A stretch of 64,000 nucleotides of DNA from Kiritimatiellia bacterium (GCA_045603485.1 JAZUMF010000005.1:40784-104783), one strand, 5' to 3'; shown: positions 24,357 to 62,437, numbered from the stretch's first letter. Numbers and translations: made by a program. Notes: generated by a model not told the origin, from the sequence alone.

Positions 24357-24365
24357 GTTTTGACA

Positions 24366-39725: not shown

Positions 39726-39735
39726 AATTTTTAAT

Positions 39736-40808: not shown

Positions 40809-40820
40809 GAGACGGACGCC

Positions 40821-41214: not shown

Positions 41215-41419
41215 GTGGCCTTGGGACAAGGGCTGTCAGACGATGGAGTGGTTGAGACAGCTACTCCCTCGCCACTTCAGAGGCAGTATGCAATAAAGCC
41301 ATGCCGATTCCGCGAAAGCAAAGTTCAAATCGCAAAGTTTTGAAGTTTACCATTGACATTGTAATCAGAATTATAATACAATATCCAGCCATAGGGCTAA
41401 CTATGCCCTTGAACAGGGA

Positions 41420-42002
41420 TTGGAAATGATAGAAGCGAAAAAGCCGACGGCACAGAGGAGCATCTTTGCGCAATGGCGTGAAGGTGTAGTTGGGCGTTGT
41501 CATTTTCCGTGGCTGACGTTACGGCGGATGGTCTTTGTTCTTGCATCTGCTGTGGCTGTCTGGGTGCATGTCGCCGAAGCCAGTATTCCGCTGACGGTAA
41601 AATGTCGATGTGAACGGGCTGATGCCGATCGTGACATTGGGAGCAAGACGGAAACGCTTTGGATATTTGTGCTTGATCACTCTGGTTCAATGGGTAATCA
41701 TCGAGATGCCTACAGTATCAAGCGAGGGACGGGATCTGGTTTGCGTTGGACGGCTCTTAAAGATAGTTTTGAGGAAACTGTGCAATCAATCCCGATTGGA
41801 GCGAGCGTTCAAGTTCCTCCTGTTCCTCGGTATCGTTGGCGCGATTGGATATGTTTGCGTAACGGCCAATGTCGATTGGAGCAACTACAAGGAGCGCTTT
41901 GCCAACATCAAGGAGACTGCGCAGGAGGCCAAGGAGTGGGTCCAGCAGCACGGCGAGAAGCTGCATGTCATCCTTGAAACAGCACTGGAGTCCGACGATT
42001 AA
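41420..42002 (+). pseudogene. Possible frameshifted gene: vWA-like N-terminal fragment joined to a small TM/coiled C-terminus
   Basis: Frame 1 carries FVLDHSGSM, a MIDAS-like DxSxS motif, and then degenerates. Frame 2 (41610..42002) carries a clean TM helix and a helical tail. The two frames overlap near 41800. Confidence 0.3.
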
Positions 42003-42004
42003 AG

Positions 42005-42889
42005 ATGAACCTGTTCTTGCAGCTACTTGGGAATGGCCTTGTACAAGGCGCGGTCGCGATGCTCTACGCGGCCGGTTTTGGCATTGTCTACAGGTCATTT
42101 CGCGTGTTTCACATAGCGATGGGAGCGCAGTTTGTCTTTTCGTGCTATGCGTTCTACACGTGCGCAGCGGTGTGTAAACTTCCGCTGACGGTTTCGGTGC
42201 CGGCGGTGCTGGCGCTGTCGGCTATTTTCGCCGTGCTGATTGAACGTGCCGTCTATCATCCGTTTGCCCGGAAGCGCTGCTCGTCCGGCGTTATGATGAT
42301 CGCTTCGCTCGGTATCATGATTGTTATTGAAAATGTCATCGCGCTCATTTACGGGAATGAGGTGAAAACGATTTCAAATCAATTGGAGCCGTCCGTCGTG
42401 TTTGCAGGACTTCGCTTTACCCGCATTCAGGTTCTTCAGTTCCTTGTCGGGTTTGGTGTGTTCACCTTCGTCGGTATGGCGGTGCGCTACGGCAAATGGT
42501 TCAAGGCGTTGTGGGCAATGGGCGACCAGCCCGAACTCTTGGCCGTTCTTGGGCTGCCTGTGCGTCGGTTGCGTCTTGGTGTGATGATGCTTGGCGGTGT
42601 GCTGGTGGCGATTCCGGCGATGTTGATTTCATGGGATATCGGAATGGATCCGCATGTCGGTATGCACTATCTTCTGCTCGGTTCGGTAGCGGTGTTTTTC
42701 GGAGGCGCCGACAGATATTGGGCCTGGGGCGCGGGTGCGTTGCTCCTCTCTGCGTTGCAAAGCCTTGCCGTTTGGCAGCTTTCGGCACGGTGGACCGATC
42801 TTGTGACGTTCGGCGTCTTGATTTTCGTTCTGATGTTCCGTCCGCAGGGGCTTTTCGGCGTGAGCAAACGACTGGAGGAGTCCAAATGA
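42005..42889 (+). CDS. livH: Branched-chain amino acid ABC transporter permease LivH
   Basis: LivH-like N-terminus LLGNGLVQGAVAMLYAAGFGIVY. Polytopic. Confidence 0.85.
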   Translation: MNLFLQLLGNGLVQGAVAMLYAAGFGIVYRSFRVFHIAMGAQFVFSCYAFYTCAAVCKLPLTVSVPAVLALSAIFAVLIERAVYHPFARKRCSSGVMMIASLGIMIVIENVIALIYGNEVKTISNQLEPSVVFAGLRFTRIQVLQFLVGFGVFTFVGMAVRYGKWFKALWAMGDQPELLAVLGLPVRRLRLGVMMLGGVLVAIPAMLISWDIGMDPHVGMHYLLLGSVAVFFGGADRYWAWGAGALLLSALQSLAVWQLSARWTDLVTFGVLIFVLMFRPQGLFGVSKRLEESK

Positions 42890-43755
42890 ATTATCTTCTC
42901 CATATCGGCGTGATGCTGGGCATCTACGGGATGTTGGCTCTTTCGACCAATCTGCTGATCGGGTTCGGCGGGCTTCTTACGATGGCGCAGGCCGCCTTTT
43001 ACGGACTTGGTGCTTACACATACGCGCTTTTGTCGCTTAAATTGGGGCTTCCGTTCTATGTGACGCTTCCCGCTGCTGTCGCGCTTTGCGCGCTCGTCGG
43101 CTGGCTGTTCGGACACGCCGCGCTCAGATTCCGCAATGAAGCATTCGTTCTGGCGACGATAGGATTTCAGATGATCGTCTATGTCGTTCTTTACAACTGG
43201 ACCGATCTGACGCGCGGACCGTATGGAATCTCGGGGATCCCACGTCCGTCGCTTTTCGGCATGAGTATAGAATCCGTGCCTGCATATTTCGTGTTCACTC
43301 TCGTTCTCTTCGCCCTCGTTCTCGCTTTTGTGCATCTTGTCGTCCAAAGTCCGTTCGCGCTTTCGCTCAAAGCCCTGCGCGACGACGAGGCCGCGGCGCA
43401 GACCTTGGGCATCTGTCCCAAGGGGCAGTATATCAAGGCCATGGTTTTTTCGTCTGCGGTCGCCGCGGTGCCGGGCGTATGTTTCGCAAGTTACATTACC
43501 TACATCGATCCGACAAGTTTCACGCTTTCAGAGTCGATTTTCATAGCCTGCATTCTGCTTGTCGGCGGATCGGGCAATATCGCAGGCCCTATGTCCGGCG
43601 TTGTGTTCATGATTGTTCTTCCTGAACTTTTGAGGTTTGTCGGCCTTCCGGATGCGGTCGCGGCGAATCTGCGCGAGATAATCTACGGCGTGTTGCTGAT
43701 CGTTCTTGTGTACATGAAACCTAAAGGATTGGCAGGTGCATATGCAGTCAAGTAA
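42886..43755 (+). CDS. livM: Branched-chain amino acid ABC transporter permease LivM
   Basis: The N-terminus MNYLLHIGVMLGIYGMLALSTNLLIGFGGLL is LivM-like. The upstream extension in the ORF track (from 42496) is rejected. Confidence 0.85.
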   Translation: MNYLLHIGVMLGIYGMLALSTNLLIGFGGLLTMAQAAFYGLGAYTYALLSLKLGLPFYVTLPAAVALCALVGWLFGHAALRFRNEAFVLATIGFQMIVYVVLYNWTDLTRGPYGISGIPRPSLFGMSIESVPAYFVFTLVLFALVLAFVHLVVQSPFALSLKALRDDEAAAQTLGICPKGQYIKAMVFSSAVAAVPGVCFASYITYIDPTSFTLSESIFIACILLVGGSGNIAGPMSGVVFMIVLPELLRFVGLPDAVAANLREIIYGVLLIVLVYMKPKGLAGAYAVK

Positions 43756-44551
43756 GAGCGATCCGCGCATAATAGAGCCTGTCGAGCTGCGGGTTGAAAA
43801 CGTCGGGAAGCGCTTCGGCGACTTCGTGGCGTTGCACGATGTGAACATCACCTGCGCACTTGGGAAAGTGACAGCGCTCGTCGGTCCGAACGGCGCTGGT
43901 AAGACAACGTTTTTTCACGTCATCGCCGGGAGCCTCAAGCCCGACGGCGGTAAAGTCTATCTCGGCGATAAGGAGATAACCGGAATGCCACCGTATAAGA
44001 TCGCGCGTCGGCATGTCGGTCGTCTTTTTCAGGATATTCGCATATTCCCTGATTTGACCGTCTTGGAGAATGTGCAGGTTTCGCTCCTGCACGCGTCGGA
44101 TTATTCGTTTGCGTCCACATTTGCGTTTTGGCGGTTTGCCGCGCGTGATGCCGACCGCTACGAACGCTCGATGAAGTGGCTTGATTTTGTAGGGTTGTCG
44201 GATGACGCCGCCAAGCCGGCGCTCGAGCTCTCGTATGGTCAGCAGAAACTTCTCGCTTTTGCGCGTCTTGCGGCACTTCGCCCGGCCGTACTTTTATTGG
44301 ACGAGCCTACGGCGGCATTATCGCCCGCAATGGCGAGTAAGATGGTAGGTCTAATAAAGCGCCTTGTCTCTGAGCAAGGTTTGACGGTTGCGTTGATCGA
44401 GCATAATATGGGTGTAGTAAGGGAGCTCGCGGATTATATCTATTTTCTTCATGAAGGATCCGTTTATATGCAGGGTACACAGAAAGAGGTTCTTGAAAAT
44501 CCTTTAGTCCGTAAACTCTATATGGGGCTGGGAGGTGCTGCATGCTGCTGA
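43736..44551 (+). CDS. livG: Branched-chain amino acid ABC transporter ATPase LivG
   Basis: Walker A GPNGAGKTT, LSYGQQK signature, and Walker B LLLDEP. Confidence 0.85.
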   Translation: MHMQSSKSDPRIIEPVELRVENVGKRFGDFVALHDVNITCALGKVTALVGPNGAGKTTFFHVIAGSLKPDGGKVYLGDKEITGMPPYKIARRHVGRLFQDIRIFPDLTVLENVQVSLLHASDYSFASTFAFWRFAARDADRYERSMKWLDFVGLSDDAAKPALELSYGQQKLLAFARLAALRPAVLLLDEPTAALSPAMASKMVGLIKRLVSEQGLTVALIEHNMGVVRELADYIYFLHEGSVYMQGTQKEVLENPLVRKLYMGLGGAACC

Positions 44552-45249
44552 CGATGGAGCATATCTTTTGCGGCTACGGCGATAGACCTGTACTCAATGA
44601 TGTCAGCCTTTCCGTTAATGAAGGTGAGGCTGTGCTGATCGCCGGGCCGAATGGCTGCGGAAAGTCTACGCTTTTGAAAGCTGTTTCAGGGGTGCTTAAG
44701 TTGTCTGCTGGCAATATCAAACTATCCGGAGAATCGCTCGCGGGACTTTCGGTCGAGCGGCGTATTCGATCGGGTATCGGTTATTTGCGCCAAAGCGATA
44801 ACATCTTTCCCGGTCAGACGGTCGAGGAGAATCTTGGGCTCGCCGGGATGATGCTTTCAAGAGCGATATATTTGTCCGCGAGAGATGAGATGTTGGAACT
44901 TTTCCCTTTTCTTAAAGCGAAACTTAACGATCGGGCAGGCTCATTATCTGGTGGGCAGCGTCAGGCACTCGCATTAGCGATGGTATTCCTAAGCCCTAAA
45001 AAGCTCTATCTTCTTGATGAGCCGACGGCAGGGCTTTCGCCTGCAGCCGCACAGGATATTATGGGTCGGGTACGTCAATTCGTGAAGGACGATGCGATGC
45101 GCTCGGTTCTTATGGTGGAGCATCGGCTTGATCTTTTGTCGTGGGTCGATCGTGCGGTCTTTCTTTCGCAGGGCAAGGTCAAATCCGAAATCGAGAATAT
45201 CGCGCTTCTTCAGGATGCCGAATGGCTCGCGAAGAATTATTTTGAGTAA
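44542..45249 (+). CDS. livF: Branched-chain amino acid ABC transporter ATPase LivF
   Basis: GPNGCGKST, LSGGQRQ, and LYLLDEP. Confidence 0.85.
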   Translation: MLLTMEHIFCGYGDRPVLNDVSLSVNEGEAVLIAGPNGCGKSTLLKAVSGVLKLSAGNIKLSGESLAGLSVERRIRSGIGYLRQSDNIFPGQTVEENLGLAGMMLSRAIYLSARDEMLELFPFLKAKLNDRAGSLSGGQRQALALAMVFLSPKKLYLLDEPTAGLSPAAAQDIMGRVRQFVKDDAMRSVLMVEHRLDLLSWVDRAVFLSQGKVKSEIENIALLQDAEWLAKNYFE

Positions 45250-45265: not shown

Positions 45266-46702
45266 ATGACGATGACACGGTTAGATGAATTACTGAGAAA
45301 CGGCGAAGGACTCGCCACAGAGTTCAAGCGGTGCTCGGGTAGAGTTGAGCACGATGTGTTTGAGTCTATCTGCGCATTCCTTAACAGGTTTGGCGGCGAT
45401 GTGTTACTTGGGGTCGAGGATGACGGGACTGTTGTCGGGATAAAAGGCGATCCGGTCGCATTGCGCAATAATATTATGAATATTGCGAATGACGGGAATG
45501 TTTTTGATCCGGTTGCATATATCGCGCCTGAGATTGTCGAGTATGATGGTAAGACGATTATCAGTGTTCATGTTCCTGCAAGCGGCGAGATTCATGCTTA
45601 TAAGGGCGTTGTTTATGATCGCAACGGCGATGCGGATGTGCGTGTGCGCTCGACGGCGGCCAAGGGTATGATGTTGCTGCGCAAACAGGGTGTTTTCACT
45701 GAACAGCGGATATATCCGTATGTTACAAAGGCCGATTTGAATCTTGCCGATCTAAAGCGGCTTCGCATTCGTGCGCAGAATAACAGCCGTGATGAAAGCC
45801 GCCATCCGTGGATGGATATGGATGATGATCAGCTTCTGCGTAGTGCCAAGCTGGTTGGCACAGATCGTGAATCTGGTAAGAGTGGTTTTAACCTTGCGGC
45901 CGTTATGCTGCTTGGAACGGAAGATGTTATAAAAGATATTTGCCCCGCATATGTTACGGATGCCATTTTGCGTGTTAAAGACATTGATCGTTATGACGAT
46001 CGCGATGTGGTCGGTGTTAATTTGATTGCGGCATACGACAGATTGATGGATTTTGCGAGAAAGCATCTTCCGGATCCGTTTTTTCTTGAAGGGGATATCC
46101 GTAAAAGTCTTCGTGAAATTATCGTCCGTGAAATGGTGGCAAATACGCTCATTCATCGCGAATTTACGAGTTCGCGCCCGGCGCGGTTTGTCATTGAACG
46201 CAGCCGAATGTATGTTGAGAATGCATGTCGAGCATCCTGCGGTGATGCATTGACGCCCGAGAATTTTGTCCCCGACCCAAGAAATCCCATAATAGCCAAC
46301 TTCTTCAGGGTGATTGGCTACGCTGACCAACTCGGCTCTGGTGTTAGGAATCTTTTCAAGTACGCCAAGGCATACGGCGGTTCTGATCCTAAGTTGAAGG
46401 ACGGAGACATATTTCGGATTGAGGTGTCGCTTCAGTCTGTAAAGGTGGGGGCGACTATGGAGAAAATGTCTGCTACTAGGGAGAAAACTAGGGAGGAAAC
46501 GACAGCTACTAGGGAGAAAACTAGGGAGAAAATCATTGCCTTCCTTTCAGATCATCCAAGTGCTACACAGGATGTCATAGCGAATTCGGTAGGGTTGTCA
46601 GTGAAAGGTGTGGAGTGGAACATAAAGGCGTTGAAGGATTCAGGACGCATCCGCCGTGTTGGCCCAGACAAAGGTGGACATTGGGAGGTTGTCTCGCAAT
46701 GA
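45266..46702 (+). CDS. AlbA_2 (Schlafen-like divergent AAA) / HATPase_c_4 / winged-helix ATP-binding regulator
   Basis: The N-terminus RLDELLRNGEGLATEFKRC...GGDVLLGVEDDGTVVGI matches the AlbA_2 (AAA_4) fold pattern. A C-terminal wHTH is present. An internal tandem duplication reads ATREKTREETT/ATREKTREK. Confidence 0.55.
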   Translation: MTMTRLDELLRNGEGLATEFKRCSGRVEHDVFESICAFLNRFGGDVLLGVEDDGTVVGIKGDPVALRNNIMNIANDGNVFDPVAYIAPEIVEYDGKTIISVHVPASGEIHAYKGVVYDRNGDADVRVRSTAAKGMMLLRKQGVFTEQRIYPYVTKADLNLADLKRLRIRAQNNSRDESRHPWMDMDDDQLLRSAKLVGTDRESGKSGFNLAAVMLLGTEDVIKDICPAYVTDAILRVKDIDRYDDRDVVGVNLIAAYDRLMDFARKHLPDPFFLEGDIRKSLREIIVREMVANTLIHREFTSSRPARFVIERSRMYVENACRASCGDALTPENFVPDPRNPIIANFFRVIGYADQLGSGVRNLFKYAKAYGGSDPKLKDGDIFRIEVSLQSVKVGATMEKMSATREKTREETTATREKTREKIIAFLSDHPSATQDVIANSVGLSVKGVEWNIKALKDSGRIRRVGPDKGGHWEVVSQ

Positions 46703-46934
46703 AAAAGCAGAAAGACATAGCTTTGCCGATGGATGGTGCGAAAGACTATCGCAAGTGGTGGTTTTGCGTTCTATAAGTATCGTTACGTTCTTTGCGTTAA
46801 AAAATCGAAGGCGGTGGAATGTGCGACATTATGAAGATTTTTGATATAATGTGCAACCGTAGACCGTCCTTTACGAGGCCCGCGAGTGGCGGGCAAAGGC
46901 GCTGGGAATCATTTAAGAATAAGGAGAAAGAAAG

Positions 46935-47333
46935 ATGAAAAATGGCATTAATCGTTCGACTGAGAAATTGCAGCATTATCCGTCGCCATTCTCAAAGCTT
47001 TTGCTCGTTCCGCAGGACAGTACGCTTTCGGTTGAGTCGGATCTTACTGGTGCAGTGGGCGTTTGCAAGAACGCGACTCTGGTCTGTGGCGGCTCTTGTT
47101 TCATTAACGTGGAGATTGGCGAGAAGGCTAAATTTATTTGCCGAGGAGCGTGTCTTGGAAATGTTGTGATTAAAGAGGGAGGCTTCTTTAAGTGTGATGG
47201 AGAAATGAGCGGCGACATCACAAACAACGGCGGTCGGTACGATATTCACGGATCCTTCTCCGGCGAGGTGTACGGTGAATTGGAAGAGGACGAAGAAGAT
47301 GATGATGATTACGACATAGATGAAGACAATTAA
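46935..47333 (+). CDS. Cys-rich beta-helix (bactofilin-like) protein with polyacidic tail
   Basis: Repeating G-x-V/C motifs (VCGGSCFINVEIGEKAKFICRGACLGNVVIKEGG). C-terminal EEDEEDDDDYDIDEDN. Confidence 0.35.
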   Translation: MKNGINRSTEKLQHYPSPFSKLLLVPQDSTLSVESDLTGAVGVCKNATLVCGGSCFINVEIGEKAKFICRGACLGNVVIKEGGFFKCDGEMSGDITNNGGRYDIHGSFSGEVYGELEEDEEDDDDYDIDEDN

Positions 47334-47551: not shown

Positions 47552-48040
47552 ATGGATAAAATGGGTCAGGAACAGATAGTTGACGCAGTGCGCAACTGGC
47601 TTAAAGCTAACGACTGGTATTACGATTACAATGCCGAGAAGCATATGTTCAATATGAGCATCAGCCTCAAGAGCAAATTACAGTCAGGCAGGATATTCGT
47701 AGATGTCAAGGAAGACTGTTACGCGGTGTACATTTACGCGCCAATTAGGGGCAAGGACAATCTCGCCGAACTCACCAAGTACCTGACGATGGCCAACTAC
47801 GGCCTGCTCAACGGGAACTTCGAGCTGGACGTAGACGACGGCGAAATCCGCTACAAGACCTACGTGAATTGCGATGGGTTGCAGGAGCTCTCTTCAGCGG
47901 TTATCGAGGACAGCATTTACGTCGGCTGTGTTATGATGGATCGCTATGGCGACGGCATCGCCGCGCTTGCGCTTGGGTTCTCCGATGCCGACACGGAAAT
48001 CAAGAAGGCAGAAAAAAAGGACGAGTCTTCTGCTTCGTGA
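47552..48040 (+). CDS. YbjN-family protein (T3SS-chaperone-like putative sensory transduction regulator)
   Basis: A 162-aa acidic protein with the YbjN-like pattern: the DWYYDY region, then YAVYIYAP...LNGNFELD. Confidence 0.55.
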   Translation: MDKMGQEQIVDAVRNWLKANDWYYDYNAEKHMFNMSISLKSKLQSGRIFVDVKEDCYAVYIYAPIRGKDNLAELTKYLTMANYGLLNGNFELDVDDGEIRYKTYVNCDGLQELSSAVIEDSIYVGCVMMDRYGDGIAALALGFSDADTEIKKAEKKDESSAS

Positions 48041-48077
48041 AAGAATCTATTTTCTTTAGAAAGAAAGGTATGCAACG

Positions 48078-49199
48078 ATGAAGATTAAGAAGAACCTGTT
48101 ACTGGTCGTTATCCCAACGGTCACTGTTTTGGCATTTGTCATATTTTTTGCATGCCGAAACAGACAACCAGCTTCTGCCGATAATGCTGTCCAAGTTGGT
48201 GTGATTCTGCCTTTGACGGGCTCGCTTGGATATGAAGGAACTCGTATGAAAGATGCGATGGACTTGGCATTGTCCCAATTAGATGGTGAAAAACAACAAT
48301 GTTTAAAACTCAATTACGAAGACGGGAAGTTTTTGGTTCGCGATTCCATATCGGCGTTCAACAAATTAAACGAGAAGGGGATGGATGCATGGGTCATTTT
48401 TGGTGATACGCCGTTGTTAGGCATGAAAACTTTACTTGAGAAGACTGGAAAACCAGTTTTGTGCCTCATTGGAGCTCAGGATCTAGTCAAAGATTCGCAA
48501 ACGTTCTTCCATTTTTCGGGATCTATAACGTTGCCGGCTATTGAGAATGCTAAGTTTGCCAAGCGCAAGGGCGTGAAGACGGTCTCTTTAATTTATTTAA
48601 ATGAACAGATTGGTTTGGAGGTGAAGGGTGCTTTTGAACGGGAGTTTATAGACGAAGCACATAAGGTAGTCGCGTCAGAGGGATTTGACATGGGGCAACG
48701 AGCAATGAAGAGTTTGGTTGCGAAAGCTATTGCGCCTAATCCTGACGCAGTATTTGTTTATGGATATGCGACTCCATATATTGAAATCTTAAACGAAATA
48801 AAAAATGTTGGCTACCGTGGAATTGTTTTGACAGATGGAAATCTTGCCGCTGTAAAACCCGATCTTATCGATGGTGGGGAGGGCGTTTGGTATGCAGATT
48901 TTGATTTTGGCGATGGATGTGAGAACCCAGAGACTAAAAAGTTTCTGCATGACATGCATGACATCTATGGGGAGACTGCGAGTTCCTTTTCCGCATTTGC
49001 CTATGAAACGGTACGTGTGCTGTCGACAATTATCCATGATAAGGGTAAAACCCCTGCCGATATTCATAGCGGATTGTTGGCAATTAAGGACTACCACTCT
49101 ATTTTTGGTGTGATATCGTATCGTGACAATAGGGAACTTGAAATCCCAGTAGTGATTAAAAAGGCAACACGGGATAGCGCACAAGTTGTTAATGATTAA
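48078..49199 (+). CDS. Leu/Ile/Val-binding-protein-like periplasmic binding protein (ABC substrate-binding or sensor PBP)
   Basis: N-terminal TM/signal anchor, then a type-I PBP fold pattern (VQVGVILPLTGSLGYEG...). It lies immediately upstream of the giant gene and is coupled to it. Confidence 0.75.
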   Translation: MKIKKNLLLVVIPTVTVLAFVIFFACRNRQPASADNAVQVGVILPLTGSLGYEGTRMKDAMDLALSQLDGEKQQCLKLNYEDGKFLVRDSISAFNKLNEKGMDAWVIFGDTPLLGMKTLLEKTGKPVLCLIGAQDLVKDSQTFFHFSGSITLPAIENAKFAKRKGVKTVSLIYLNEQIGLEVKGAFEREFIDEAHKVVASEGFDMGQRAMKSLVAKAIAPNPDAVFVYGYATPYIEILNEIKNVGYRGIVLTDGNLAAVKPDLIDGGEGVWYADFDFGDGCENPETKKFLHDMHDIYGETASSFSAFAYETVRVLSTIIHDKGKTPADIHSGLLAIKDYHSIFGVISYRDNRELEIPVVIKKATRDSAQVVND

Positions 49200-49212
49200 G
49201 GAGGCTCCGCTC

Positions 49213-52200
49213 ATGGATGCAGGACCGGATGCACAGCATGGTGTAAATACAGGCGTTGTGGAATCCAAATACTATGTGGATGTATGGTTGCCGGACGCTA
49301 AAGACTATCCGGGGTTGAGAGGAGCAAGTCCCAAAGTCCAAGAGGCATTGGGTCTAGGCCTTGGACTTCCAGATAAACCTACAGTTGTTCCACTTGGTGA
49401 AATAGAAATTAATCTTAAGCCTCGGTTCTATAAGCGAAACGAAAAGAATCTTGATATTGATAGTGAATCGGTCGCGGCCATTTCGTTTTCGGAAGATTTC
49501 GCGAAGCAGTGTAATTCCAATGATGTGGCCGTTCTTGCAATGATGGGTGGGGTTCTTCCTGCAGGGAAGAATTTCTTTAGAATGGGTTTTTCCGTTGAAA
49601 CTATTGCGGCCATCATTGGAGATCAGATTATTAATGATAATGACGGACGGGTGTCTCATGTTTTTTTGATTCGTGTGGATAATGATCTTGGAAATGAATT
49701 TGAACGAGCATTCTCAAGGGCGGTGAATGCCCCAAACCAAGGGCGTTCTTTGGATATACTCAAGATTGATGAGAACGGTACCCCCATTACTAAGAAGATA
49801 CAAATTACGCCGACGGACGAACAGGTGGCACGGAATACCTCAACGAATGAGGGTGTTATTAGTAAATGGTTGACTAGTTGTATTAAAAATCCGGAACACC
49901 CAAGAAATCAAGGCCTGAGATCTGTTGTCATATATGGATATTGGGAGCAATATTGGAATTTCGTAATAGAAGTATTAAGATGCAAAGCCTTTTGTAACGA
50001 CGAAGATTGGTTATATGTTGAGTCAAATTACCCGCTACATTATCCCTTTATTCTTTATGAAGCACGACATGTAGATGATTTAGATCAAGATGATTTGCAA
50101 AATTTTACTAAAGAACGCACTGATGATATTATTCCGAGATCGGTGGAAATTACGAGTTCGGGAAAAAATAATAAAAGGATAATGGGAGATAAAAAACAAG
50201 AGAAAACAGGAGGTGAAAGTCCAGAGAAACCGCCGGAGAGTGTGTTTCACCCTCAGAAGGGGAATTTGCAAAACAACAATGAAGACGAAAGGGATTTCAA
50301 TATATTTAATGAAAAGAAAATGGCTCATGCGAGTACGATAGCTCATGCGATCAAGAATAGGGATGAACCTGAAGAAGAGCATCAAAAAGAATCTAAGGAA
50401 CTCAGTCAAGAAAAGCTTATGCCGAGGGAACTTAAGCGAATTCGTTGTATAACGGGTAGACTCGTTAATGATGGTGAAAGTAGTTTCATTACATTTGCGA
50501 AGGAAACGGTTCGCCTGCTTCGTGCTGCTATTAGGGACGCTCATGAAAAAAAGGGAAAAGCGCAAGATCGGACCATCAAATCTATACGAGAATGCATATG
50601 CAAGTTTTTGGCAAATAGTAAGTTCTATGCAGCGGAACATCTAGGGTCTTTCTTTTTTCGAAAAGATGGTGAATTGTTTTTCCCTCTCTACCTCTATAAC
50701 GGAAAGCTTGAGCGACAAAGAATCGTCAGAGAGTCTTGTTGTAAGGGTGATGAATTCACAAAGGAGGCTATAGCCGATCAATTACTACAACTATCTAATT
50801 CTCTGAACAAGATAACGCGGGCTGAAATCCCCCGCAACCTTAAGGTAGGCAATTCGGATGGTGCTAAGAAGGTATTTGAGGAATTCAGTAAAATAATTGC
50901 TGACATCTCAAAGGGAATTGAGATTAAGTTTGTAAGCTATTATCCTAATACAGAGCACCTGTTCTATACATGGACAGATACGCAGGAGGGAAATGTTGAT
51001 AAGACGGAGCGATTTATCAATGTTAGCATTTTTGATGATGTTTGTAAAAAAATACAAGGTGTAATCCAGATTAACTTAAAAGATTTTGATTTGGAAGATA
51101 ACGATGCATATAGAGTATATTTGGTCTACGAGAGGACTGAAAAAGTTTTTGATGCATTAACTCTGGCGGAGTGGTGGAATACACAAAGCAATGATTGCCA
51201 GGCGACGATTATAGCTGGGAATAAAGGTTGGGAGAGATGTCTATTGCCTGTTAAGGCGGTTGTGTTTGCCAAATCAAGGATTGGGAAACAAGACGGTCAG
51301 ACGGATGAGGGTATGTCTGAAAACGAGTATAAAGATATTATAGACAATGCCAATTATGCACACTACTACCGCGACTGCGACGGCCATGAAAGCAAGTTCA
51401 AGTTTGATGAGATTTTAAGTGGTCTTTGTAAACTTCTTGGGTGTAGTGGAGACAACGGCAATTCAGAATCAGATGCCCGTTTTTTATATTATATTCCTGA
51501 ATATATTCCGGAAGACAACAAACCTGAAGGCAATAATAGTTACAAGATAGGTGGGCAAGGCGGAATCGTTATGGCGACTTGTTGCAAGTTGTCTTTGTTT
51601 GATTTGCAAATTGTTGAGAATATGGTCTCCCACATTTTTTCTAAGCTAAAAACATGTTTGGCAGAACATGATGTCCTCCTTTCAAATATAAAATCTGCCA
51701 TTGGCTCCATAATGTCTCGCAATGGTTCTCATAACATTGGTAGCCATGTATTGGCGGCACTGTCGCACAATGTGGGAACATTGCCGGATGATAGGGTGTT
51801 ATATCAGTATATTCAGCAGCGGATGGATTATATTGCAACGGTGACGACGGACTTTCCGACATGGACGCAACCGACAATGTTTGTAGCCGATATGATGAAA
51901 ACTTTTTTATCGCAGAGGCATTTATTAGATCATATTGTGGAGAGCGAAGGGTTGCATGCATTTCAGTTTCAAAATCCTAATATGACGGATGAGGAGTGGG
52001 CGGCTCAAGAAAACTGTGTAAAGATTTATGTTAGGAAGTTAGATGGTGATGGAAGTGTAAAGGACTTCATTGAATATGAAAAGGGTAAACGAGAACTTCC
52101 CATTGATTTGACTAATGATGTTGATTTAGCAATTCCCGGGGGAATAATTGGTGAACATGCGTTCTATACGATTCTTGAAAATATAATTCGGAATGCCGCG

Positions 52201-54687
52201 AAACATTCTTGGGCGAAGATTAAACAATGGCAAATAAGGCAAAACGAAATTGAGTTGCAGTATAATAATTTGGAGCTTTTCATTGATTTTGAAGAAAAGG
52301 ATGATGAGGTTAAGTATAACGTTTATGCAAAGTTGCCGATGGCTCAGGTAGTTGTGGAAAAATCTAAAGCTGACAATAAATTATGTCAGAAGGTGATTGC
52401 TTCAGAACAACTGATTAAATGGAAGGAAAAGTTTGATGATATGGGTGTAGTGAAAGCAAAGGAGGAAAATGCTTTTAAGGAGCTGCCAGATTATGAACAG
52501 GAACAGGTCAAACTACATTTGGCTAATCTCAAAGACGATCCACTTAAAAAATGGGTAGATAGATATGACAAACAAGGCGGATTGACATCTGATGAGCAGA
52601 AGGAGTTTGATTCATTGGCGATTCATCATAAGCAACAAGTTATGTTGGCGAGGCCTTTTATTGATTCGCAGGGAGCACTTCGTCGTGAGAATTGGGGTAT
52701 GGCAGAAATGAAGATATCGGCAGGATATCTCGCTGGCGAATCTATTGAGGCGATAGGGGGTATTGGAGACAAAAAAGGAAGTAATGAAATTATAACGCCA
52801 CGCATCAAATCAGAAAAGGTCAAGAGGAAATGTATAGAATCAGGGGAAAAAGTAACAGAAATTGAGGTCGAAGAACTATATTTAGGCTATGAATTTTCTA
52901 TTGCCAAACCCAAGGAAATATTGATTATAGTTGCGGAGGAGCTGAATAGGGAAGGAAAAGACGATGAATGGGGTAGTGAAAATATTCGTAATGAATTAAA
53001 AAAGCATGGGATTTTTGTTAAGACAGTTAGCGAGATAAAACAGGAGAACCGTCTTAATTACAGGTATGTAGTTCATTATAATGCACGTGAGTTGTTTGAT
53101 AAAAATTATCATGTTAAAGATGATGTTTTATTGCCGTTTAGAGTGTTAAGTGTGGCGGATATTGAGGATGAAAGGCTTAAAGATTTTATTCCGACAATAG
53201 ATATAAGTAAACTAAAAGAGTGTTTCGAGAAGGGCACTGAAGATCCGAAAAACGGAATTCAAAAACTTGTCTACGATACTTATCTTAAACATTTTTTGTC
53301 ACAACGGAGTGTAGATAATATTGGTCTTTTGGTTGCGATAAATGAAAATGAGAAATCTGGCGGAAATAGTTTGATTTCGGATGCGGATATTCTTGAATTG
53401 ATGCTTGAGCAGAATTTTGCTGTGTGCGTAGCTCAATACAAGGAATTTGCAGCTAACGAAGATAAGATTATTAAGTGTTTAGAATCGATTCGTCATAAAA
53501 GTAGTGCTAAAGATACAGTAATAAAGTTTAAGCACTTCTCAAATAAGACGATAAGGGAATTGATTGCACAACGTATGTGCGATTGGGCTGGAAAGTCTAA
53601 TGATTCATGGATTCCAATAGTTGAACATTTGCGTAAAAAGTATTTCGTATCAGATGCTGAGAGCGAAACTTCCAATGAGCTTAAGCCAAGTAATAATGAA
53701 ATATCAGTTGATTTTGCAGCAAGTGTAAATTCTCTGTCGCAAAAACATCCGATTGATGATTTTATCCGTTATGTGGAATCGATTTTTGAAAATACAAAGA
53801 AACTGTTTAAACAGTATGAAGAGCAGATTGTGACGTTGCCGGCAGGGTATAAGGTTCAATCTTCTGATGTTGGAGAAGGGGCGTCGCTTATAGACGGGAT
53901 TAAGATTATTACATCAGCAGAGAAAGAAGAACTTGAAAAAGAAAAAGATCGCCACTGGATTGGGTATCGCCGTCATGCTCATACGCTACCTGTTGATGAT
54001 TCCAAGAGACTTTATGTTGAGCCGTTAAGCGGAACTCAGACATACTTGTCACAATTGGCGAGAGTAAAAACCGATCTTGGATTGCAAATGCGTCTTATAG
54101 AAAATGGCCTTATGCGTATTCTTGTTCTTGATGAACGAGTTGCGAAGTTCCTTCGTGAGCATCAAAAGGAAGTTGGCCCGCATTATAAGTCGATGAATAT
54201 CCATGTCATTGATCACGAATGGGTTGTTGCTGGTGGAGAAACTCCTCCTGAGGGTTTTTACGGAAAGTTTACTTCTGTGCACAAAGAAGCGTTGAAATCA
54301 TTTGTAAAACCGAAAGATTCTAATGATGGTGAGAATAACCAAAATGGGAATGCCGATGTGAGCTCGAATTCGAACCTTACTATGTTTGATGATGTTGACA
54401 TCTTAATCGTTCATCAGGGGATTCTGGATAAATGGTACCCTGAATTCAAAAATCGTAAGGATATGTGGAAGTTATTGGAAGGGTTCAAGAAATTAGTGAA
54501 ATATGTTGTCGTGACTACTGGTCGAGGGACTCCGGAGAACATACCTGAAGAGACTCATCTGTTGCCGTTCGCCGTCGTTGAATCTACACTCTTTAAGAAA
54601 TATCCAGAGAAGTTGATCTTAACAGATACTATCATGAATGTCCTTCCTGTTGGGAAGAAGAACGACAACTCTGGAGGCCAAAAATGA
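49213..54687 (+). CDS. Giant (1824 aa) cytoplasmic protein with a histidine-kinase-type GHKL ATPase N-box and a degenerate receiver-like C-terminus; AT-rich
   Basis: ATG 49213 lies 10 nt after AAGGAGG, which overlaps the PBP stop. N-box-like LENIIRNAAKHS at about 52176-52210. An upstream H-rich motif SRNGSHNIGSHVLAALSH at about 51712-51765. C-terminus RILVLDERV...DILIVHQGILD...YVVVTTGRG. No Walker A and no TM helices found. The nucleotide composition is visibly AT-rich compared with the flanks. Confidence 0.6.
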   Translation: MDAGPDAQHGVNTGVVESKYYVDVWLPDAKDYPGLRGASPKVQEALGLGLGLPDKPTVVPLGEIEINLKPRFYKRNEKNLDIDSESVAAISFSEDFAKQCNSNDVAVLAMMGGVLPAGKNFFRMGFSVETIAAIIGDQIINDNDGRVSHVFLIRVDNDLGNEFERAFSRAVNAPNQGRSLDILKIDENGTPITKKIQITPTDEQVARNTSTNEGVISKWLTSCIKNPEHPRNQGLRSVVIYGYWEQYWNFVIEVLRCKAFCNDEDWLYVESNYPLHYPFILYEARHVDDLDQDDLQNFTKERTDDIIPRSVEITSSGKNNKRIMGDKKQEKTGGESPEKPPESVFHPQKGNLQNNNEDERDFNIFNEKKMAHASTIAHAIKNRDEPEEEHQKESKELSQEKLMPRELKRIRCITGRLVNDGESSFITFAKETVRLLRAAIRDAHEKKGKAQDRTIKSIRECICKFLANSKFYAAEHLGSFFFRKDGELFFPLYLYNGKLERQRIVRESCCKGDEFTKEAIADQLLQLSNSLNKITRAEIPRNLKVGNSDGAKKVFEEFSKIIADISKGIEIKFVSYYPNTEHLFYTWTDTQEGNVDKTERFINVSIFDDVCKKIQGVIQINLKDFDLEDNDAYRVYLVYERTEKVFDALTLAEWWNTQSNDCQATIIAGNKGWERCLLPVKAVVFAKSRIGKQDGQTDEGMSENEYKDIIDNANYAHYYRDCDGHESKFKFDEILSGLCKLLGCSGDNGNSESDARFLYYIPEYIPEDNKPEGNNSYKIGGQGGIVMATCCKLSLFDLQIVENMVSHIFSKLKTCLAEHDVLLSNIKSAIGSIMSRNGSHNIGSHVLAALSHNVGTLPDDRVLYQYIQQRMDYIATVTTDFPTWTQPTMFVADMMKTFLSQRHLLDHIVESEGLHAFQFQNPNMTDEEWAAQENCVKIYVRKLDGDGSVKDFIEYEKGKRELPIDLTNDVDLAIPGGIIGEHAFYTILENIIRNAAKHSWAKIKQWQIRQNEIELQYNNLELFIDFEEKDDEVKYNVYAKLPMAQVVVEKSKADNKLCQKVIASEQLIKWKEKFDDMGVVKAKEENAFKELPDYEQEQVKLHLANLKDDPLKKWVDRYDKQGGLTSDEQKEFDSLAIHHKQQVMLARPFIDSQGALRRENWGMAEMKISAGYLAGESIEAIGGIGDKKGSNEIITPRIKSEKVKRKCIESGEKVTEIEVEELYLGYEFSIAKPKEILIIVAEELNREGKDDEWGSENIRNELKKHGIFVKTVSEIKQENRLNYRYVVHYNARELFDKNYHVKDDVLLPFRVLSVADIEDERLKDFIPTIDISKLKECFEKGTEDPKNGIQKLVYDTYLKHFLSQRSVDNIGLLVAINENEKSGGNSLISDADILELMLEQNFAVCVAQYKEFAANEDKIIKCLESIRHKSSAKDTVIKFKHFSNKTIRELIAQRMCDWAGKSNDSWIPIVEHLRKKYFVSDAESETSNELKPSNNEISVDFAASVNSLSQKHPIDDFIRYVESIFENTKKLFKQYEEQIVTLPAGYKVQSSDVGEGASLIDGIKIITSAEKEELEKEKDRHWIGYRRHAHTLPVDDSKRLYVEPLSGTQTYLSQLARVKTDLGLQMRLIENGLMRILVLDERVAKFLREHQKEVGPHYKSMNIHVIDHEWVVAGGETPPEGFYGKFTSVHKEALKSFVKPKDSNDGENNQNGNADVSSNSNLTMFDDVDILIVHQGILDKWYPEFKNRKDMWKLLEGFKKLVKYVVVTTGRGTPENIPEETHLLPFAVVESTLFKKYPEKLILTDTIMNVLPVGKKNDNSGGQK

Positions 54688-55280
54688 AATATTATGTCTT
54701 TATCGCAAGAGACGAGGAAGAGTTTTCGCGCTATCCTCAAAGTGGGTTTCAGGAGCTGAAGAGGGATTTTGCAAAAACGATTCGCCATAAGGAGATGGGA
54801 GACTCATATTTATTGATTATATCAAGCGATGTGAAGCCTAAGAATGCAGAATCGGATGAAGATGTTAAGATGATGTGTTTTAAGGTTGCAGCTGCGATAA
54901 AGTTAGTAAATACAAATTACGATTATGCAGCAGGTAATGATTGTGTGCATATTTTTGTTCATGTGGGTGGAGAAGGTAGTTGTGGCTTAGGGAAAATGGA
55001 GGAAAGTCTAAAAAAGAAGGTTGGAGAAATAAAGGAAAATTGGAAAGTTTTTCTTTTAAGTTCAAGCTGGCGCTGGAGAATTGATGTCAAGCAGTCTATG
55101 ATTAGATTGCCTAATAGAGAAGGGGAACTTGATGTTCTTGTAAAGCGGTGCGAGATGGACATTGCCGCTGAGATTTTAAAAGGATTTAAGGCTCGTTATA
55201 GTACTACTGAGAAAAAAGATTGCTATGATAAAATCTGTGAAAAGCTTTCCATTGTTAAGATTGAGGAGAAGAGAAAATGA
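54684..55280 (+). CDS. Small hypothetical protein (198 aa), possibly a degenerate receiver/flavodoxin-like fold
   Basis: ATGA overlap with the upstream and downstream genes. Alternating beta-alpha pattern: YYVFIARDEE, YLLIISSD, VHIFVHVGG. No recognisable catalytic motif. Confidence 0.45.
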   Translation: MKYYVFIARDEEEFSRYPQSGFQELKRDFAKTIRHKEMGDSYLLIISSDVKPKNAESDEDVKMMCFKVAAAIKLVNTNYDYAAGNDCVHIFVHVGGEGSCGLGKMEESLKKKVGEIKENWKVFLLSSSWRWRIDVKQSMIRLPNREGELDVLVKRCEMDIAAEILKGFKARYSTTEKKDCYDKICEKLSIVKIEEKRK

Positions 55281-58200
55281 GCAATGGCAGAAAATTAAAT
55301 CTTTTTATTTTTGACTTGGCACAGCATGGAGAACTGACAAACCTAGTACTGTGGCAAGTAGCTAAGATGTTTGAGATGAGGTGTGGTATCTGTGTTGCTT
55401 CTTATTCATGGTGTGCGCCTTTAAAGAAAGAGAAATTTATTCCTCTATTTCTTTGCAATTCGTATGATGAGATTAGGGCGCATGGTTTTAATGTGCCAAG
55501 AGAATTTGTCTTTGAGGTTGGATTGAATCCTAATCCTAATTATATTGATGATCCAGATAATCAACCAGAGATGTTGTGTGAGATCTTAGGGGATAAGATA
55601 GAAGATCGGTTAAGTCTGTATAAGGAGTTAGAAATAGGTGTAAGTTTTGAGGATGTTAAAGACTGGTGTGTCGGTGCGTTTCGTAGATATTTGTTTATGG
55701 ATGATGATGTTCACGGAACATCGGGGACTTTTTCTATTTCGGAATTAATGAAATGCAACAAAGAAACAGGCTTGAATGTTGATGATAAATATTGGCAAAA
55801 ATGGTTTGGGGAATTCGGTGATGACAAAAATAAATTTAACAGAGAGATGTTGCGGGCTAGATTCGGAGTTGGCGTGAAAAATTCAAGTGACAGTACAACG
55901 CAAAATCCAAAGGAAGATGATCCGCTCAGAAATTATAAGGATGTATTGTCGGTTGTGTTTGAGGAAGAATTTAGGTGCATAAAAGCAGACGTTATTGAGA
56001 ATCCGGGCGAAAGCTATCAAAGAGTAAAAGATTTTTTTGAGAAGAAGTTTCCAAGTCAGCAAGGTCTTGCATTAAAATTTATTTCTCCATGCGGAAAGAT
56101 ACGTGTACTTGTTGTAGATGATAATGCTACAGCCGAAGTTGAAAGTCTTAAAAGTAAAGAATCGTTGTCTAATATTTTTGATTTTGCTCCGTTGGATTTG
56201 AAGAAGCGAGATGATGAATCTTCGAATCAGTTTATAAAAAGATCCATAGGCGAGATAAAAAATAAATCTAAGGAATGTGTTGATGTAATTTTATTAGATC
56301 TAAGCTTAGGCGAGGCGACAGGTTCTGATTTGACTGGCTATCATCTGATTAAGAGATTTAAGCAATGGATGCCGACGGCCTATATCATTATTTATTCTGA
56401 ACATGAGGATATGGGGCATATTGTTCGTGCGTTCAGAGAGGGTGCCGATTGGTTTTTGAAAAAGAGCGAAGCTCAAGAAAAACTTGCGCGTCATTTTATT
56501 TCGTTGATGGCGAATCGCAAATGGAGAAAAGAATTCGGCGTCATCAGACCGAAATATGTTCTTGATATAAAAGGCAAGGATGAAAATTTTATCGCCAAAT
56601 TCAATGTAAAAGAGGTATGGCAATATTTGACAATAAAAAGTCTGGAATTATTGCCGGGACATTATATCAAGATAAATAAGATGGGGGGCGGTATCAGTTC
56701 GGCTGTCACATTCCGAGCGCAGAAAGGCATTACAAGAGATACTGAAGATAATCAGGCGCCCGTAATCATCAAGATAGATTCTGTTTTTAATACGAGGATG
56801 GAATATGAGCGTTATTTCCGCTTCATTCGACCGTATATTGCCAATGAGTCGGGGCGGATAGAGAAGCGTGAAATAGTTCTCAATAGGGATAGCGCCGCGA
56901 TTGTTTATACATTTACAGGGCGGCGAGATGCTGCACATGAACTTAACACCTTGGACGAACTGCTGCGCCGCGATATGTTATCGCGTGAAACTTGCGATTA
57001 TGAAAAATATCGCAAGATGTTTAATGCGCTGTTTGATGAGATCACAGCGCGTCTGCACAGGGTGACTCCAGTCGCAGAATTCAGGGATTTAAAGACAGAT
57101 CCGGAAGAGTTGTCGGAGTTTTCTGATTATCCCAATCGCACATTTGGAGAATTGGAGAGTGATTCTATATCATCCTCCGATCAAGGTCATAAATCTTGGT
57201 TTTTCTCGAATTTTACATATAGAATGCCGATAGAGAGTGTTGCTGAAAAGTTTATAATAAGTGAAGGCTCAAGCAATCCGAATGAGGTATATGAAGTTTA
57301 TGGTATCCAGAAGGATGACTTAGGTAAGAATTCCGCTAAATACCCTTATACTTATGTTATTGAATGTCAGCGATATAAGATTAAAACTGAAAATGATAAT
57401 AAAGAGTTGCATCAAAAGGTGTTGCTGAAAGGCGATTTAGCGTCATATTACGCCCGTTTTAGGACACATCTTTGGCCGGGAATGTTGCTGTCGATAAAAC
57501 TGGGGGAAGGTCAAACATTAAATGAGAACGAACTTATGTCTTGGTGCTTTTGTTTCTGCGCCAATAAGAATTTATATCAAATCCGCGCTGAAAAGACAGA
57601 AGATGGCTCTAAACAAGAGGGATGTTTCCGGATATCTAAAAAGCTTTATAATAAGATGGCCGGATGGTTTAAGGATAAAGAAAACCGATACTTAATAACA
57701 GTTCGTGACGCGCTGAAAAAACTTGTCGATGAGGAGCCGCACAGATTTGTGTGTCCGGTTGGTATTGTGCACGGCGATTTAAATCTTAAGAACATTATGA
57801 TTGAATCCCGGGTCAATCCACCGAAAGAAATTCAAGCAGACATAACGAAGGTTTTGTCTGATGTGTGGCTTATAGACTTTGCTCGGACGCGGCGAGATGT
57901 CGTAGCACATGATTTCAATGTCGCTTTTACATCAGTACTTCCGTTGCTCTTTCAGCCGGATCTCGTTGGGACGCATGAGAAGGGTAAACCGTTTGAGCAG
58001 AATGATGAGCAGAAGAAATACGTCGAAGAATTAGATGAAAAACTTGAACCGTATTTGCGCCATGTTCTCTTTGACAAGTATGATACTTTGTCGGATTTGT
58101 TTGCGGAAGATCAGCGACTTGTTTTCATGTACAAGATATTAAGAAGAATCCGTAAAGCGGCACTTGCGACGGGGATGTCGGAGGATATGTATCTACTGAC

Positions 58201-60935: not shown

Positions 60936-60954
60936 CGGCGCAAGGAGTGTTATC

Positions 60955-62436: not shown

Positions 62437-62437
62437 G

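Follow-up and report, generated by a model that had tools for sequence, protein, structure and literature searches.

Does a substrate-binding protein whose gene runs directly into that of a giant kinase-like protein still serve a transporter, or has it become the sensor of the kinase? The question is raised by a locus from a Kiritimatiellia bacterium (GCA_045603485.1, JAZUMF010000005.1:40784-104783), contained in a stretch of 64,000 nucleotides (nt) that is referred to as the window in the following. It carries the gene of a periplasmic binding protein (PBP), immediately behind it the gene of a giant protein likely, if unproven, to be of the histidine kinase type, and, further upstream, the permease and ATPase genes livHMGF. 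A preliminary description of the window had suggested that the PBP acts as the sensor of the gene cassette rather than as a component of transport. A survey of 102 related loci supports the PBP as a constant partner of the giant gene; livHMGF is an equally constant partner, and the PBP is not detached from the transporter. The reading favoured here, by a modest measure, is that the PBP acts by way of the importer, and that the importer as a whole serves as the input device of a kinase relay. The features of the locus are compiled in Table 1.

The binding protein and its junction with the giant gene

The classification of the PBP proceeds from its match to the Pfam family Peripla_BP_6 (E 6e-26, 92.3 bits against a cut-off of 31.7), which covers 327 of the 343 profile positions, and from a weaker Pfam match to ANF_receptor (E 1.5e-5). 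The top match among solved structures is 3td9 (E 1.4e-11), and the nearest solved relatives are binding proteins of the HAAT family. By its hydropathy the protein begins with MKIKK, followed by a hydrophobic anchor at residues 7-25. Close relatives number 14 among 5.8 billion proteins, beyond which the similarity falls to 26%; the identity to generic PBPs amounts to 23-26%. With the NCBIfam model for LivJ/K (NF011933) the PBP attained 19.5 bits, the cut-off being 477, and it is not scored as LivJ/K. By these comparisons the label LivJ-like, which the preliminary description had attached to it, appears to be true at the level of the fold only; LivJ/K proper did not stand, and a specificity for leucine, isoleucine and valine is not supported.

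At its 3' end the PBP gene reads TAAGGAGG, with the stop codon TAA at 49197-49199. The motif AAGGAGG overlaps this stop, and the first in-frame ATG of the giant gene follows at 49213, which leaves 13 nt from stop to start. All of this can be read directly from the DNA, and it bears out the coupling of the two genes proposed earlier. Nor was this coupling refuted by a terminator, since no terminator-like site was found between the genes in a promoter/terminator scan whose counts overall were at chance level, and which was used solely for the emptiness of the 13-nt junction. The GC content is 0.43 for the PBP gene, 0.39 for the giant gene and 0.51-0.55 for livHMGF, with values of 0.37-0.43 across about 48000-58000.

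Conservation of importer, binding protein and giant in related loci

The related loci stem from Kiritimatiellia, Lentisphaerae, Bacteroidota, Ignavibacteria, and Caldithrix. Seven contigs, reached via three relatives of the PBP (38-48% identity) and two homologues of the giant protein, were examined first. All seven show a PBP gene followed by a gene for a giant of 1500-1900 amino acids (aa), and every contig long enough runs on into the gene of a REC/TCAD9 protein, mostly followed by one for a His_Phos_1 phosphatase. A scan of species-representative genomes and metagenomes with the invariant motifs of the giant provided 96 further loci, which were annotated with profiles built from the first ones. 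Where at least 1.3 kb were available upstream of the kinase-core ORF (open reading frame), 67 of 83 loci had a PBP gene within 4 kb upstream in the same orientation; for strong matches of the kinase core the count was 49 of 54. The gap between the PBP and the giant gene was at most 80 nt in 39 of 70 cases.

The transporter genes follow the same pattern. In the 35 loci with at least 7 kb upstream, a PBP was seen in 29, permeases of the livH/M type in 29 and both in 28, so that 28 of the 29 loci that can be assessed in this respect combine the PBP with permeases; the sole PBP without permeases in view belongs to L003, where the upstream 7 kb are occupied by inserted genes. The usual order is livH-livM-livG-livF-PBP-giant, and it was encountered in Kiritimatiellia, Lentisphaerae/Victivallales, Ignavibacteriales, Caldithrix, Marinifilaceae, and Bacteroidales. 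In L009, L013, L016, L018 and L020-L022, livF lies immediately next to the PBP gene. An export signal is present in all 22 PBPs of the system that were examined, namely a basic stretch followed by a hydrophobic one, as a signal anchor or with a lipobox cysteine. The lipobox cysteine occurs in L016 and L019-L022, all from the Fibrobacteres-Chlorobi-Bacteroidetes (FCB) group, and the PBPs from loci of the Planctomycetes-Verrucomicrobia-Chlamydiae (PVC) group possess an apparent uncleaved anchor.

As already stated in the preliminary description, the giant lacks a periplasmic part: no hydrophobic or transmembrane (TM) segment was detected by hydropathy in its 1824 aa. Because the PBPs are exported or tethered and the giant is without a TM segment, the two cannot touch directly. 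With the PBP outside and the giant inside the cell, the LivHM permease or the imported ligand therefore remains as the sole physical route between them. The proposal of a PBP that senses for the cassette thus gains from the constant partnership with the giant gene, and from the co-inheritance with its sensor half described below; its second part, that the protein is no component of transport, is at odds with the permeases found beside it in nearly every assessable locus.

One locus of the set, L017 (JAFGOA010000043.1, 2.7 kb), is a fragment of a kinase of the giant family on a contig binned as a Promethearchaeota (Asgard) metagenome-assembled genome; mis-binning is at least as likely as a genuine assignment.

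The giant kinase-like protein

The giant matched nothing in Pfam, NCBIfam, or PADLOC, and its characterization proceeds from two family alignments, A1 with 11 members and A2 with 25 members from several phyla. At E <= 1e-30 the family contains no fewer than 335 clusters of 50% identity, and nearly all of its proteins have 600-1900 aa. The H-box block at aa 828-847, SAIGSIMSRNGSHNIGSHVL..., is invariant across the 25 sequences from several phyla. Within it, the stretch SRNGSHNIGSH with H840 and H845 resembles the H-box of HisKA; no HisKA-type Pfam model matches. H840 is the candidate phosphohistidine. In the N-box of the GHKL type the residues E989, N990, R993, N994, A996, K997 and H998 are invariant in A2, the string ENxxRNAAKH corresponding to aa 989-998, and the ENWGxAE motif further downstream may represent an element of the ATP lid. 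HATPase_c was the only Pfam family matched by several members, namely 8 of 25, all of them below threshold (best E 0.011).

AlphaFold2 models of the two halves of the giant, obtained from alignments of 7-8 sequences, reached predicted local distance difference test (pLDDT) values of 38 for the N-terminal and 46.6 for the C-terminal half and are too poor to define domains. In one quick Foldseek run of the C-terminal model against the PDB, the top 50 hits were all histidine kinases, CheA or PDHK, a weak result with a best E of 3.6e-3 from a model of pLDDT 46.6. The family profile found only chance matches among PDB sequences (BAG domain, E 0.03). A receiver-like nature of the conserved C-terminal domain was considered and dropped, the hhalign comparison with receiver domains of the same loci giving E 0.05.

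The genetic context lends independent support to the kinase assignment and provides candidates for the phosphoryl acceptor. Of 60 loci with sufficient flanking sequence, 43 encode a receiver protein. The linked receivers include NtrC-type REC-sigma54-HTH (helix-turn-helix) regulators as well as stand-alone receivers just before livH, and both types flank liv-like genes in loci of the FCB group and in some from Lentisphaerae. The constancy of the DHp region is puzzling in view of the different receivers with which it is paired (REC-TCAD9 or NtrC-type).

A predicted PBP-like domain at the N-terminus of the giant

The N-terminal part of the giant, approximately residues 13-465, offers a possible site for the recognition of a ligand in the cytoplasm. 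Profile-profile comparison with the PBPs of the system yielded a local hhalign match over 149 columns (probability 94.6%, E 7e-8), and a greedy alignment over 293 columns that reaches PBP residues 31-336 (91%, E 1.2e-6). Matched motifs include NFFRMGFS with TFFHFSGS, and SSFITFAKETVRLL with SSFSAFAYETVRVL. Reversed queries and other segments of the giant, used as controls, remained at E > 0.2; profiles without the PBPs of the window type, and a profile of generic PBPs only, reproduced the match with E 3e-7 to 4e-5. At the profile level these comparisons argue for homology of the region with the PBPs of the system, and the N-domain is possibly an internal duplicate of the binding protein. It could be aligned in 15 of the 25 giants of A2. 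An S-adenosylmethionine (SAM) methyltransferase module takes its place at the N-terminus of 4 out of 23 giants scanned (alignment A5).

A charged insert of low complexity, about 130 aa long (giant aa ~280-410, 50050-50442), splits the N-domain and shows the weakest conservation within the sensor half, even when L005 and L006 are compared. In loci from Bacteroidota, Ignavibacteria and Caldithrix, one or two genes resembling SAM methyltransferases or radical-SAM enzymes lie between the PBP and the kinase gene (L016:8270-8965, L020:8538-9173, L019:8074-9039, L021:6973-8145, and L022:4871-6292). These intervening genes of the FCB group were also considered as detached PBP-like domains and rejected, with E > 0.01 and motifs of SAM methyltransferases or radical-SAM proteins. 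The methyltransferase-type genes and domains hint at a chemical modification of the ligand or of the kinase.

Modular inheritance of the locus

A comparison of neighbouring lineages showed that the parts of the locus have different histories. In L012-L015, all from Kiritimatiellia, the identity to the proteins of the window is high for the transporter (LivH 81-98%, LivM 86-98%, LivG 71-74%, LivF 63-71%), and low for the PBP (24-27%), the giant (29-48%) and the REC-TCAD9 protein (31-33%, with no match in L012). For L012 the values are 98% for LivH/M and 26% for the PBP. In L005 and L006, the PBP is 93-94%, the giant 43-58% and the REC-TCAD9 protein 32% identical; the transporter figures, which refer to L006 only, are 82% for LivH, 90% for LivM, 74% for LivG and 72% for LivF.

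The same pattern is seen in the DNA. L005 and L006 agree with the window to 86-88% over 47524-49251/49713, a block that holds the YbjN-family gene, the PBP gene and the start of the giant gene, and to 82-87% over about 50441-51975. Beyond ~51975 no match is found until the His_Phos_1 gene (58351-58930) and the gene of the 232-aa protein at the cassette end, except for one 305-nt stretch (68%) within the kinase gene of L006. This breakpoint marks the 3' end of the ~290-nt H-box/DHp-like segment, which is itself 72-82% identical at the DNA level in those loci of the first set that gave a blastn match there (14 of 22); the rest of the giant protein diverges to 25-35%. The DNA of L012 is 89% identical over livHMG, with nothing detectable over the PBP gene and only the short H-box segment over the giant gene. 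At 90% identity, LivH belongs to a cluster of 117 members, the PBP and the giant belong to clusters of 7 each, and the REC-TCAD9 protein is in a cluster of size 1.

The PBP is thus co-inherited with the sensor half of the giant, and the permeases and the output half follow separate histories. We propose that the PBP, the YbjN-family protein and the sensor half form the variable, specificity-determining block of the locus, and the H-box segment may be the recombination joint between sensor and output halves. Between genomic backgrounds that are nearly identical, this specificity module of PBP and sensor half shows sharp differences.

Proposed mechanism and alternative explanations

In the scheme preferred here, the PBP would be the substrate-binding subunit of the LivHMGF-type importer (HAAT family) encoded 3 kb upstream, and this importer would be the ancestral partner of the giant family. 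To judge from its fold, the PBP would capture a small ligand outside the cell; LivHMGF, with intact genes for permeases and ATPases, would import it; and the giant would sense it in the cytoplasm via the PBP-like N-domain, for which homology is suggested at the profile level, or would alternatively read the state of the transporter. Autophosphorylation at the invariant H840 would be followed by transfer to the receiver of the REC-TCAD9 protein, a step for which motifs and linkage are at hand and the chemistry is presumed. The receiver would then control the kinase-like TCAD9 domain, the targets of which may include the products of the three conserved downstream genes, two of them membrane proteins, and the His_Phos_1 phosphatase would reset the system. 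In other phyla, the output would be provided by an NtrC-type sigma-54 activator.

Several observations weigh against this scheme. No PBP gene was seen upstream in 16 of the 83 loci, and no receiver gene in 17 of the 60. In the window itself, gaps of 232 and 218 nt and a promoter-like site at 46823-46850 (from the scan at chance level) make the co-transcription of livHMGF and the PBP gene uncertain. The kinase assignment combines motifs, sub-threshold Pfam matches (best E 0.011) and a fold search with a low-confidence model in which no match attained E 1e-3, and the G1 and G2 motifs of the ATP lid are divergent. The N-domain is seen only by profile-profile comparison, and single-sequence Pfam searches and the predicted structure (pLDDT 38) do not confirm it. 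Furthermore, it is absent from many members of the family, and cytoplasmic sensing through this domain therefore cannot be the general mechanism. Linkage alone cannot separate a protein that senses what is imported from one that merely regulates the transporter, and every biochemical step of the scheme is deduced from sequence.

An extension of the scheme, which merits consideration although it is on balance doubtful, is that of a polymorphic import-and-sense system, in which the external PBP and the homologous internal domain co-diversify and are shuffled against the output halves by recombination at the DHp segment. If so, the design would suit strain-specific signals, as in kin or quorum recognition, or molecules derived from competitors or phages; pherotype loci and the cytoplasmic peptide receptors that depend on Opp would be its analogues. 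PVC and FCB bacteria would then possess a new class of cytoplasmic kinase receptor that depends on a transporter.

The alternative that survives best, unlikely as it is, makes the transporter a co-sensor: the giant would read the transport state of LivHMGF, for instance by docking to LivG or LivF in the style of Bce or of Pst/PhoU/PhoR, and the PBP would have its input only through the permease. A soluble giant together with an external PBP, and the linkage of livHMGF in the assessable loci, speak for it. It is also favoured by the many family members that are without a PBP-like N-domain and still keep the transporter, and the invariant core of the DHp segment could be a conserved docking surface. 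Against it, LivG and LivF are only 27-40% identical to those of the window in more distant loci, though the H-box motif is invariant, and the kinase of the window lineage has a putative ligand-binding-type domain of its own.

Plain co-regulation, in which kinase and response regulator would control the expression of an uptake system and the PBP would take part in transport only and not in signalling, has a low probability. The NtrC-type activators and stand-alone receivers that flank liv-like genes correspond to the usual layout of a substrate-induced uptake operon, and Pseudomonas aat/aau is a known locus of transporter plus two-component system; in aat/aau, however, the binding protein itself is required for signalling. 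In the lineage of the window, moreover, the output is a protein-kinase-like domain and not a DNA-binding domain, and variation in the PBP goes along with that in the sensor half of the kinase, not with the permeases.

The reading of the preliminary description, that the PBP has left the transporter and become a pure extracellular sensor like LuxP, TorT, ChvE, or AioX, with the membrane proteins at 59028-62436 as relay, is very unlikely. The tight junction of PBP and giant gene, the inheritance of the PBP with the sensor half and discordant with livHMGF, two conserved membrane proteins in the cassette, and a GC content of the PBP gene that fits the giant gene and not livHMGF speak for it. They are countered by the presence of livHMGF with the PBP across phyla, often abutting, by a giant without periplasmic or membrane part, and by the absence of the membrane proteins of the cassette from most other lineages that keep PBP, livHMGF and kinase.

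A conflict or defence module, with the TCAD9 kinase and the membrane proteins as effectors and the transporter-PBP importing or detecting a foreign or competitor molecule, is highly improbable. In its favour, TCAD9 was first delimited in vWA-MoxR-VMAP conflict systems; the alleles of PBP, giant and kinase vary extremely while their flanks are conserved, are low in GC and show mosaic recombination; and neighbours of the defence-island type (SLFN/AlbA_2, YhcG/DUF1016 nuclease, DUF4062, radical SAM) lie in or near the operon. On the other side, PADLOC matched neither the PBP, the giant, the 198-aa protein nor the REC-TCAD9 protein, no vWA, MoxR or VMAP gene occurs among the scanned ORFs, the loci of other phyla have common NtrC-type transcription activators as their output, and the study that described the ternary systems reports an absence of histidine kinases and leaves ABC transporters and binding proteins unmentioned (PMC7159879).

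Neighbouring genes

The livHMGF block occupies 42005-45249, 2.8 kb upstream of the PBP gene, and the Walker A, signature and Walker B motifs of LivG and LivF in the window are all intact. Three genes separate livF from the PBP gene. They had been called unrelated in the preliminary description; the three genes are there, and they are not simply unrelated, the first starting with its ATG 16 nt past the livF stop. The insertion is non-random; all three inserted genes recur at other positions in related loci, and it represents a lineage-specific interruption of an elsewhere contiguous unit. Homologues of the SLFN-type gene are found in 7 loci, and their place within or next to the liv operon varies: in L012 and L034 the gene separates livG from livF, and in L015 it follows livF. 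This gene could be a mobile hitch-hiker or an accessory regulator. It also occurs in L038 and L023, some copies lie between permease genes, and the neighbour is often translationally coupled; the copies to be set beside the gene of the window are L012:4034-5521 and L015:6116-7579. The 132-aa protein showed no family at E <= 0.01 in Pfam (Bactofilin at E 0.075 only) and has homologues in five loci (L003, L006, L015, L029, and L060). It consists of a Cys/Gly-rich, beta-repeat-like sequence and a poly-acidic C-terminal tail. The YbjN-family protein is 78-81% identical in L005 and L006, where its gene shares the conserved DNA block with the PBP, and it recurs in five loci at varying positions, in L015 upstream of livH. 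Other loci carry different insertions in the operon, among them YhcG/DUF1016-type nuclease, radical-SAM-like, and methyltransferase-like genes.

From the PBP gene through 63094 all genes are on the plus strand, with junctions of 13 nt or overlaps. At the position of the 198-aa protein, other loci carry non-homologous genes for 250-350 aa. The receiver of the REC-TCAD9 protein is canonical in its acidic pair, acceptor Asp, Ser and Lys, with the motifs VVDD, ILLDLS and FLKK; the kinase part shows HGDLNLKN and IDFA. TCAD9 is classed among the protein-kinase-like families and owes its name to its association with the vWA-MoxR-VMAP conflict systems. The His_Phos_1 phosphatase is 70-83% identical in L001, L002 and L005. 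Of the two membrane proteins, the first has homologues at the same position in L005 and L014, and the second is 60% identical in L005. The 232-aa protein that ends the cassette is 77-78% identical in L005, L006 and L015. Searches against NCBIfam returned only generic receiver matches for the cassette proteins, and those against PADLOC only weak pAgo-associated and Csa3 matches for the SLFN-type gene. The Pfam scan that detected no vWA, MoxR or VMAP gene covered the ORFs from 33674 to 63094; a 176-aa ORF at 63175-63705 lies beyond this range.

Table 1. Features of the locus; positions are counted from the first nucleotide of the window
Feature	Position	Strand	Description and basis
livH-like permease	42005-42889	+	BPD_transp_2; Pfam E 7e-21
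livM-like permease	42886-43755	+	BPD_transp_2; Pfam E 4e-41
livG-like ABC ATPase	43736-44551	+	ABC_tran E 2e-32; Walker A GPNGAGKT, Walker B VLLLDE, signature LSYGQQ
livF-like ABC ATPase	44542-45249	+	ABC_tran E 7e-34; Walker A GPNGCGKS, LSGGQ, LYLLDE
SLFN_AlbA_2 + HATPase_c_4 + winged HTH gene	45266-46702	+	Pfam
132-aa protein gene	46935-47333	+	Acidic tail; weak bactofilin-like repeat
YbjN-family gene	47552-48040	+	Pfam YbjN E 2.6e-5
PBP gene	48078-49199	+	373 aa; type I substrate-binding protein, predicted to be exported and tethered to the membrane
AAGGAGG overlapping the PBP stop, then spacer	49198-49212 (AAGGAGG 49198-49204)	+	Direct reading
Giant soluble histidine-kinase-like protein	49213-54687	+	1824 aa; family alignments A1, A2
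Putative cytoplasmic PBP-like (type I) N-domain	49249-50607	+	Giant aa ~13-465; profile-profile
H-box/DHp-like segment	51685-51983	+	Giant aa 825-924; invariant core motif SAIGSIMSRNGSHNIGSHVL...; H840 at 51730-51732
GHKL N-box AIPGGxxGxHAxxTIxENxxRNAAKH	52129-52206	+	Giant aa 973-998
G2-box-like motif ENWGxAExxISxGxL	52687-52731	+	Giant aa 1159-1173; W1161, G1162, E1165 invariant
Conserved C-terminal domain (ILxxDER, HQGIxDK, TTGRGxPxNxP)	53965-54648	+	Conserved in A1 and A2
198-aa protein	54684-55280	+	Overlaps each neighbour by 4 nt; no family (Pfam, PADLOC, NCBIfam)
REC + TCAD9 protein	55277-58354	+	1025 aa; TCAD9 73 bits (cut-off 40), Response_reg 36 bits (cut-off 30)
His_Phos_1 phosphatase	58351-59031	+	Pfam E 2.6e-30
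Polytopic membrane protein	59028-60935	+	About 9-10 hydrophobic segments and a soluble C-terminal part; no family found
Membrane protein with 2-3 hydrophobic segments and Rossmann-type region	60913-62436	+	Hydropathy; TrkA_N E 0.017, below cut-off
232-aa conserved protein, cassette end	62396-63094	+	No family found

Some observations concern the surroundings and variants of the cassette. In L006 a second, shorter gene of the REC/TCAD9 type (22718-24403, 561 aa) lies at the cassette end, and the output kinase can accordingly be duplicated. In loci of the Lentisphaerae type (L007, L009, L010, L011, L012, and L018) three other conserved genes, for proteins of about 260, 260-290 and 730-770 aa without a Pfam family, replace the output of REC-TCAD9, His_Phos_1 and membrane proteins, and several of these loci show no receiver gene. 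Upstream of livH, the region 39650-41977 contains tRNA-Lys(ttt), tRNA-Pro(tgg), a DUF2924 gene (40380-40808) and an ORF with a weak ParB-HTH match (40855-41214); the GC content jumps from 0.43 to 0.57, no recombinase is in view, and the region is possibly the remnant of an integrated element. An 818-aa ORF on the minus strand (36919-39375), directly downstream of mfd, matched no Pfam family at E <= 0.01.

Significance and comparison with known systems

Binding proteins and permeases of this kind that are annotated as 'branched-chain amino acid' components should not be taken as genes for Leu/Ile/Val uptake. The module looks uncharacterised but widespread, its taxon-labelled loci coming from gut, rumen, and other bacteria of the PVC and FCB groups. 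Transporter-linked sensing is known from a handful of systems, nearly all with small membrane kinases; here, an importer of the HAAT type is tied to a very large, soluble, kinase-like family. If the preferred reading is true, the locus would provide a testable case of import followed by cytoplasmic sensing that feeds a two-component phosphorelay. Most interesting about it are a specificity block that is hypervariable and a domain of the giant that may be a duplicate of the binding protein. No description of this combination of transporter and kinase emerged from a literature search, and to judge from its predicted components the locus appears to be a previously undescribed form of transporter-linked two-component signalling, with a protein family absent from current libraries.

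With the vWA-MoxR-VMAP ternary systems the locus shares the TCAD9 domain and a pattern of rapid diversification. Among the vWA-associated effectors of those systems no histidine kinases were reported, and ABC transporters and binding proteins are likewise missing from that account (Kaur et al. 2020, PMC7159879). An assignment of the locus to them was rejected, TCAD9 being the only component in common among the ORFs scanned from 33674 to 63094.

In LuxP-LuxQ, TorT-TorS, ChvE-VirA, and AioX-AioS, the binding protein docks to periplasmic domains of the kinases, and signalling does without a cognate permease. The likeness consists in a gene for an exported binding protein beside a kinase gene, with ligand specificity supplied by the binding protein. 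This type is excluded because the giant has no periplasmic domain, and because permease and ATPase genes are conserved together with PBP and kinase.

Cytoplasmic sensors with a PBP fold are represented by AmiC (with AmiR) and NasS (with NasT), separate proteins that control ANTAR antiterminators. The N-domain of the giant would fit this use of the fold at the profile level; unlike AmiC and NasS, it belongs to the same polypeptide as a kinase-like core and is accompanied by an importer and by a PBP outside the cell.

In the Bce-type systems (BceAB-BceRS) and in Pst/PhoU/PhoR, the ABC transporter is obligatory for the input to a kinase that is blind to the signal itself. The Bce transporters are exporter-like and have no binding protein, their kinases are small and sense within the membrane, and PhoR is membrane-bound. 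The logic of transporter-dependent sensing is the common element; the design of importer plus PBP and the soluble giant kinase are not shared, the giant having no TM segment and the permeases being importer subunits of the BPD_transp_2 type that work with a separate PBP. BceRSAB is among the systems named in PMC3023708.

Among experimentally studied arrangements, the closest is that of aatJQMP-aauSR in Pseudomonas, an ABC importer for acidic amino acids with the AauS/AauR pair, in which AatJ is required for both signalling and uptake (PMC7386598). Binding protein, ABC importer and two-component system are encoded together there as in the window. AauS is an ordinary membrane kinase, and the aat transporter belongs to the polar-amino-acid class with a type II PBP. 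The locus described here, unlike aat/aau, combines a soluble kinase of 1000-1900 aa, from a family without a Pfam model, with a transporter of the HAAT type, and the kinase gene directly follows that of the PBP.

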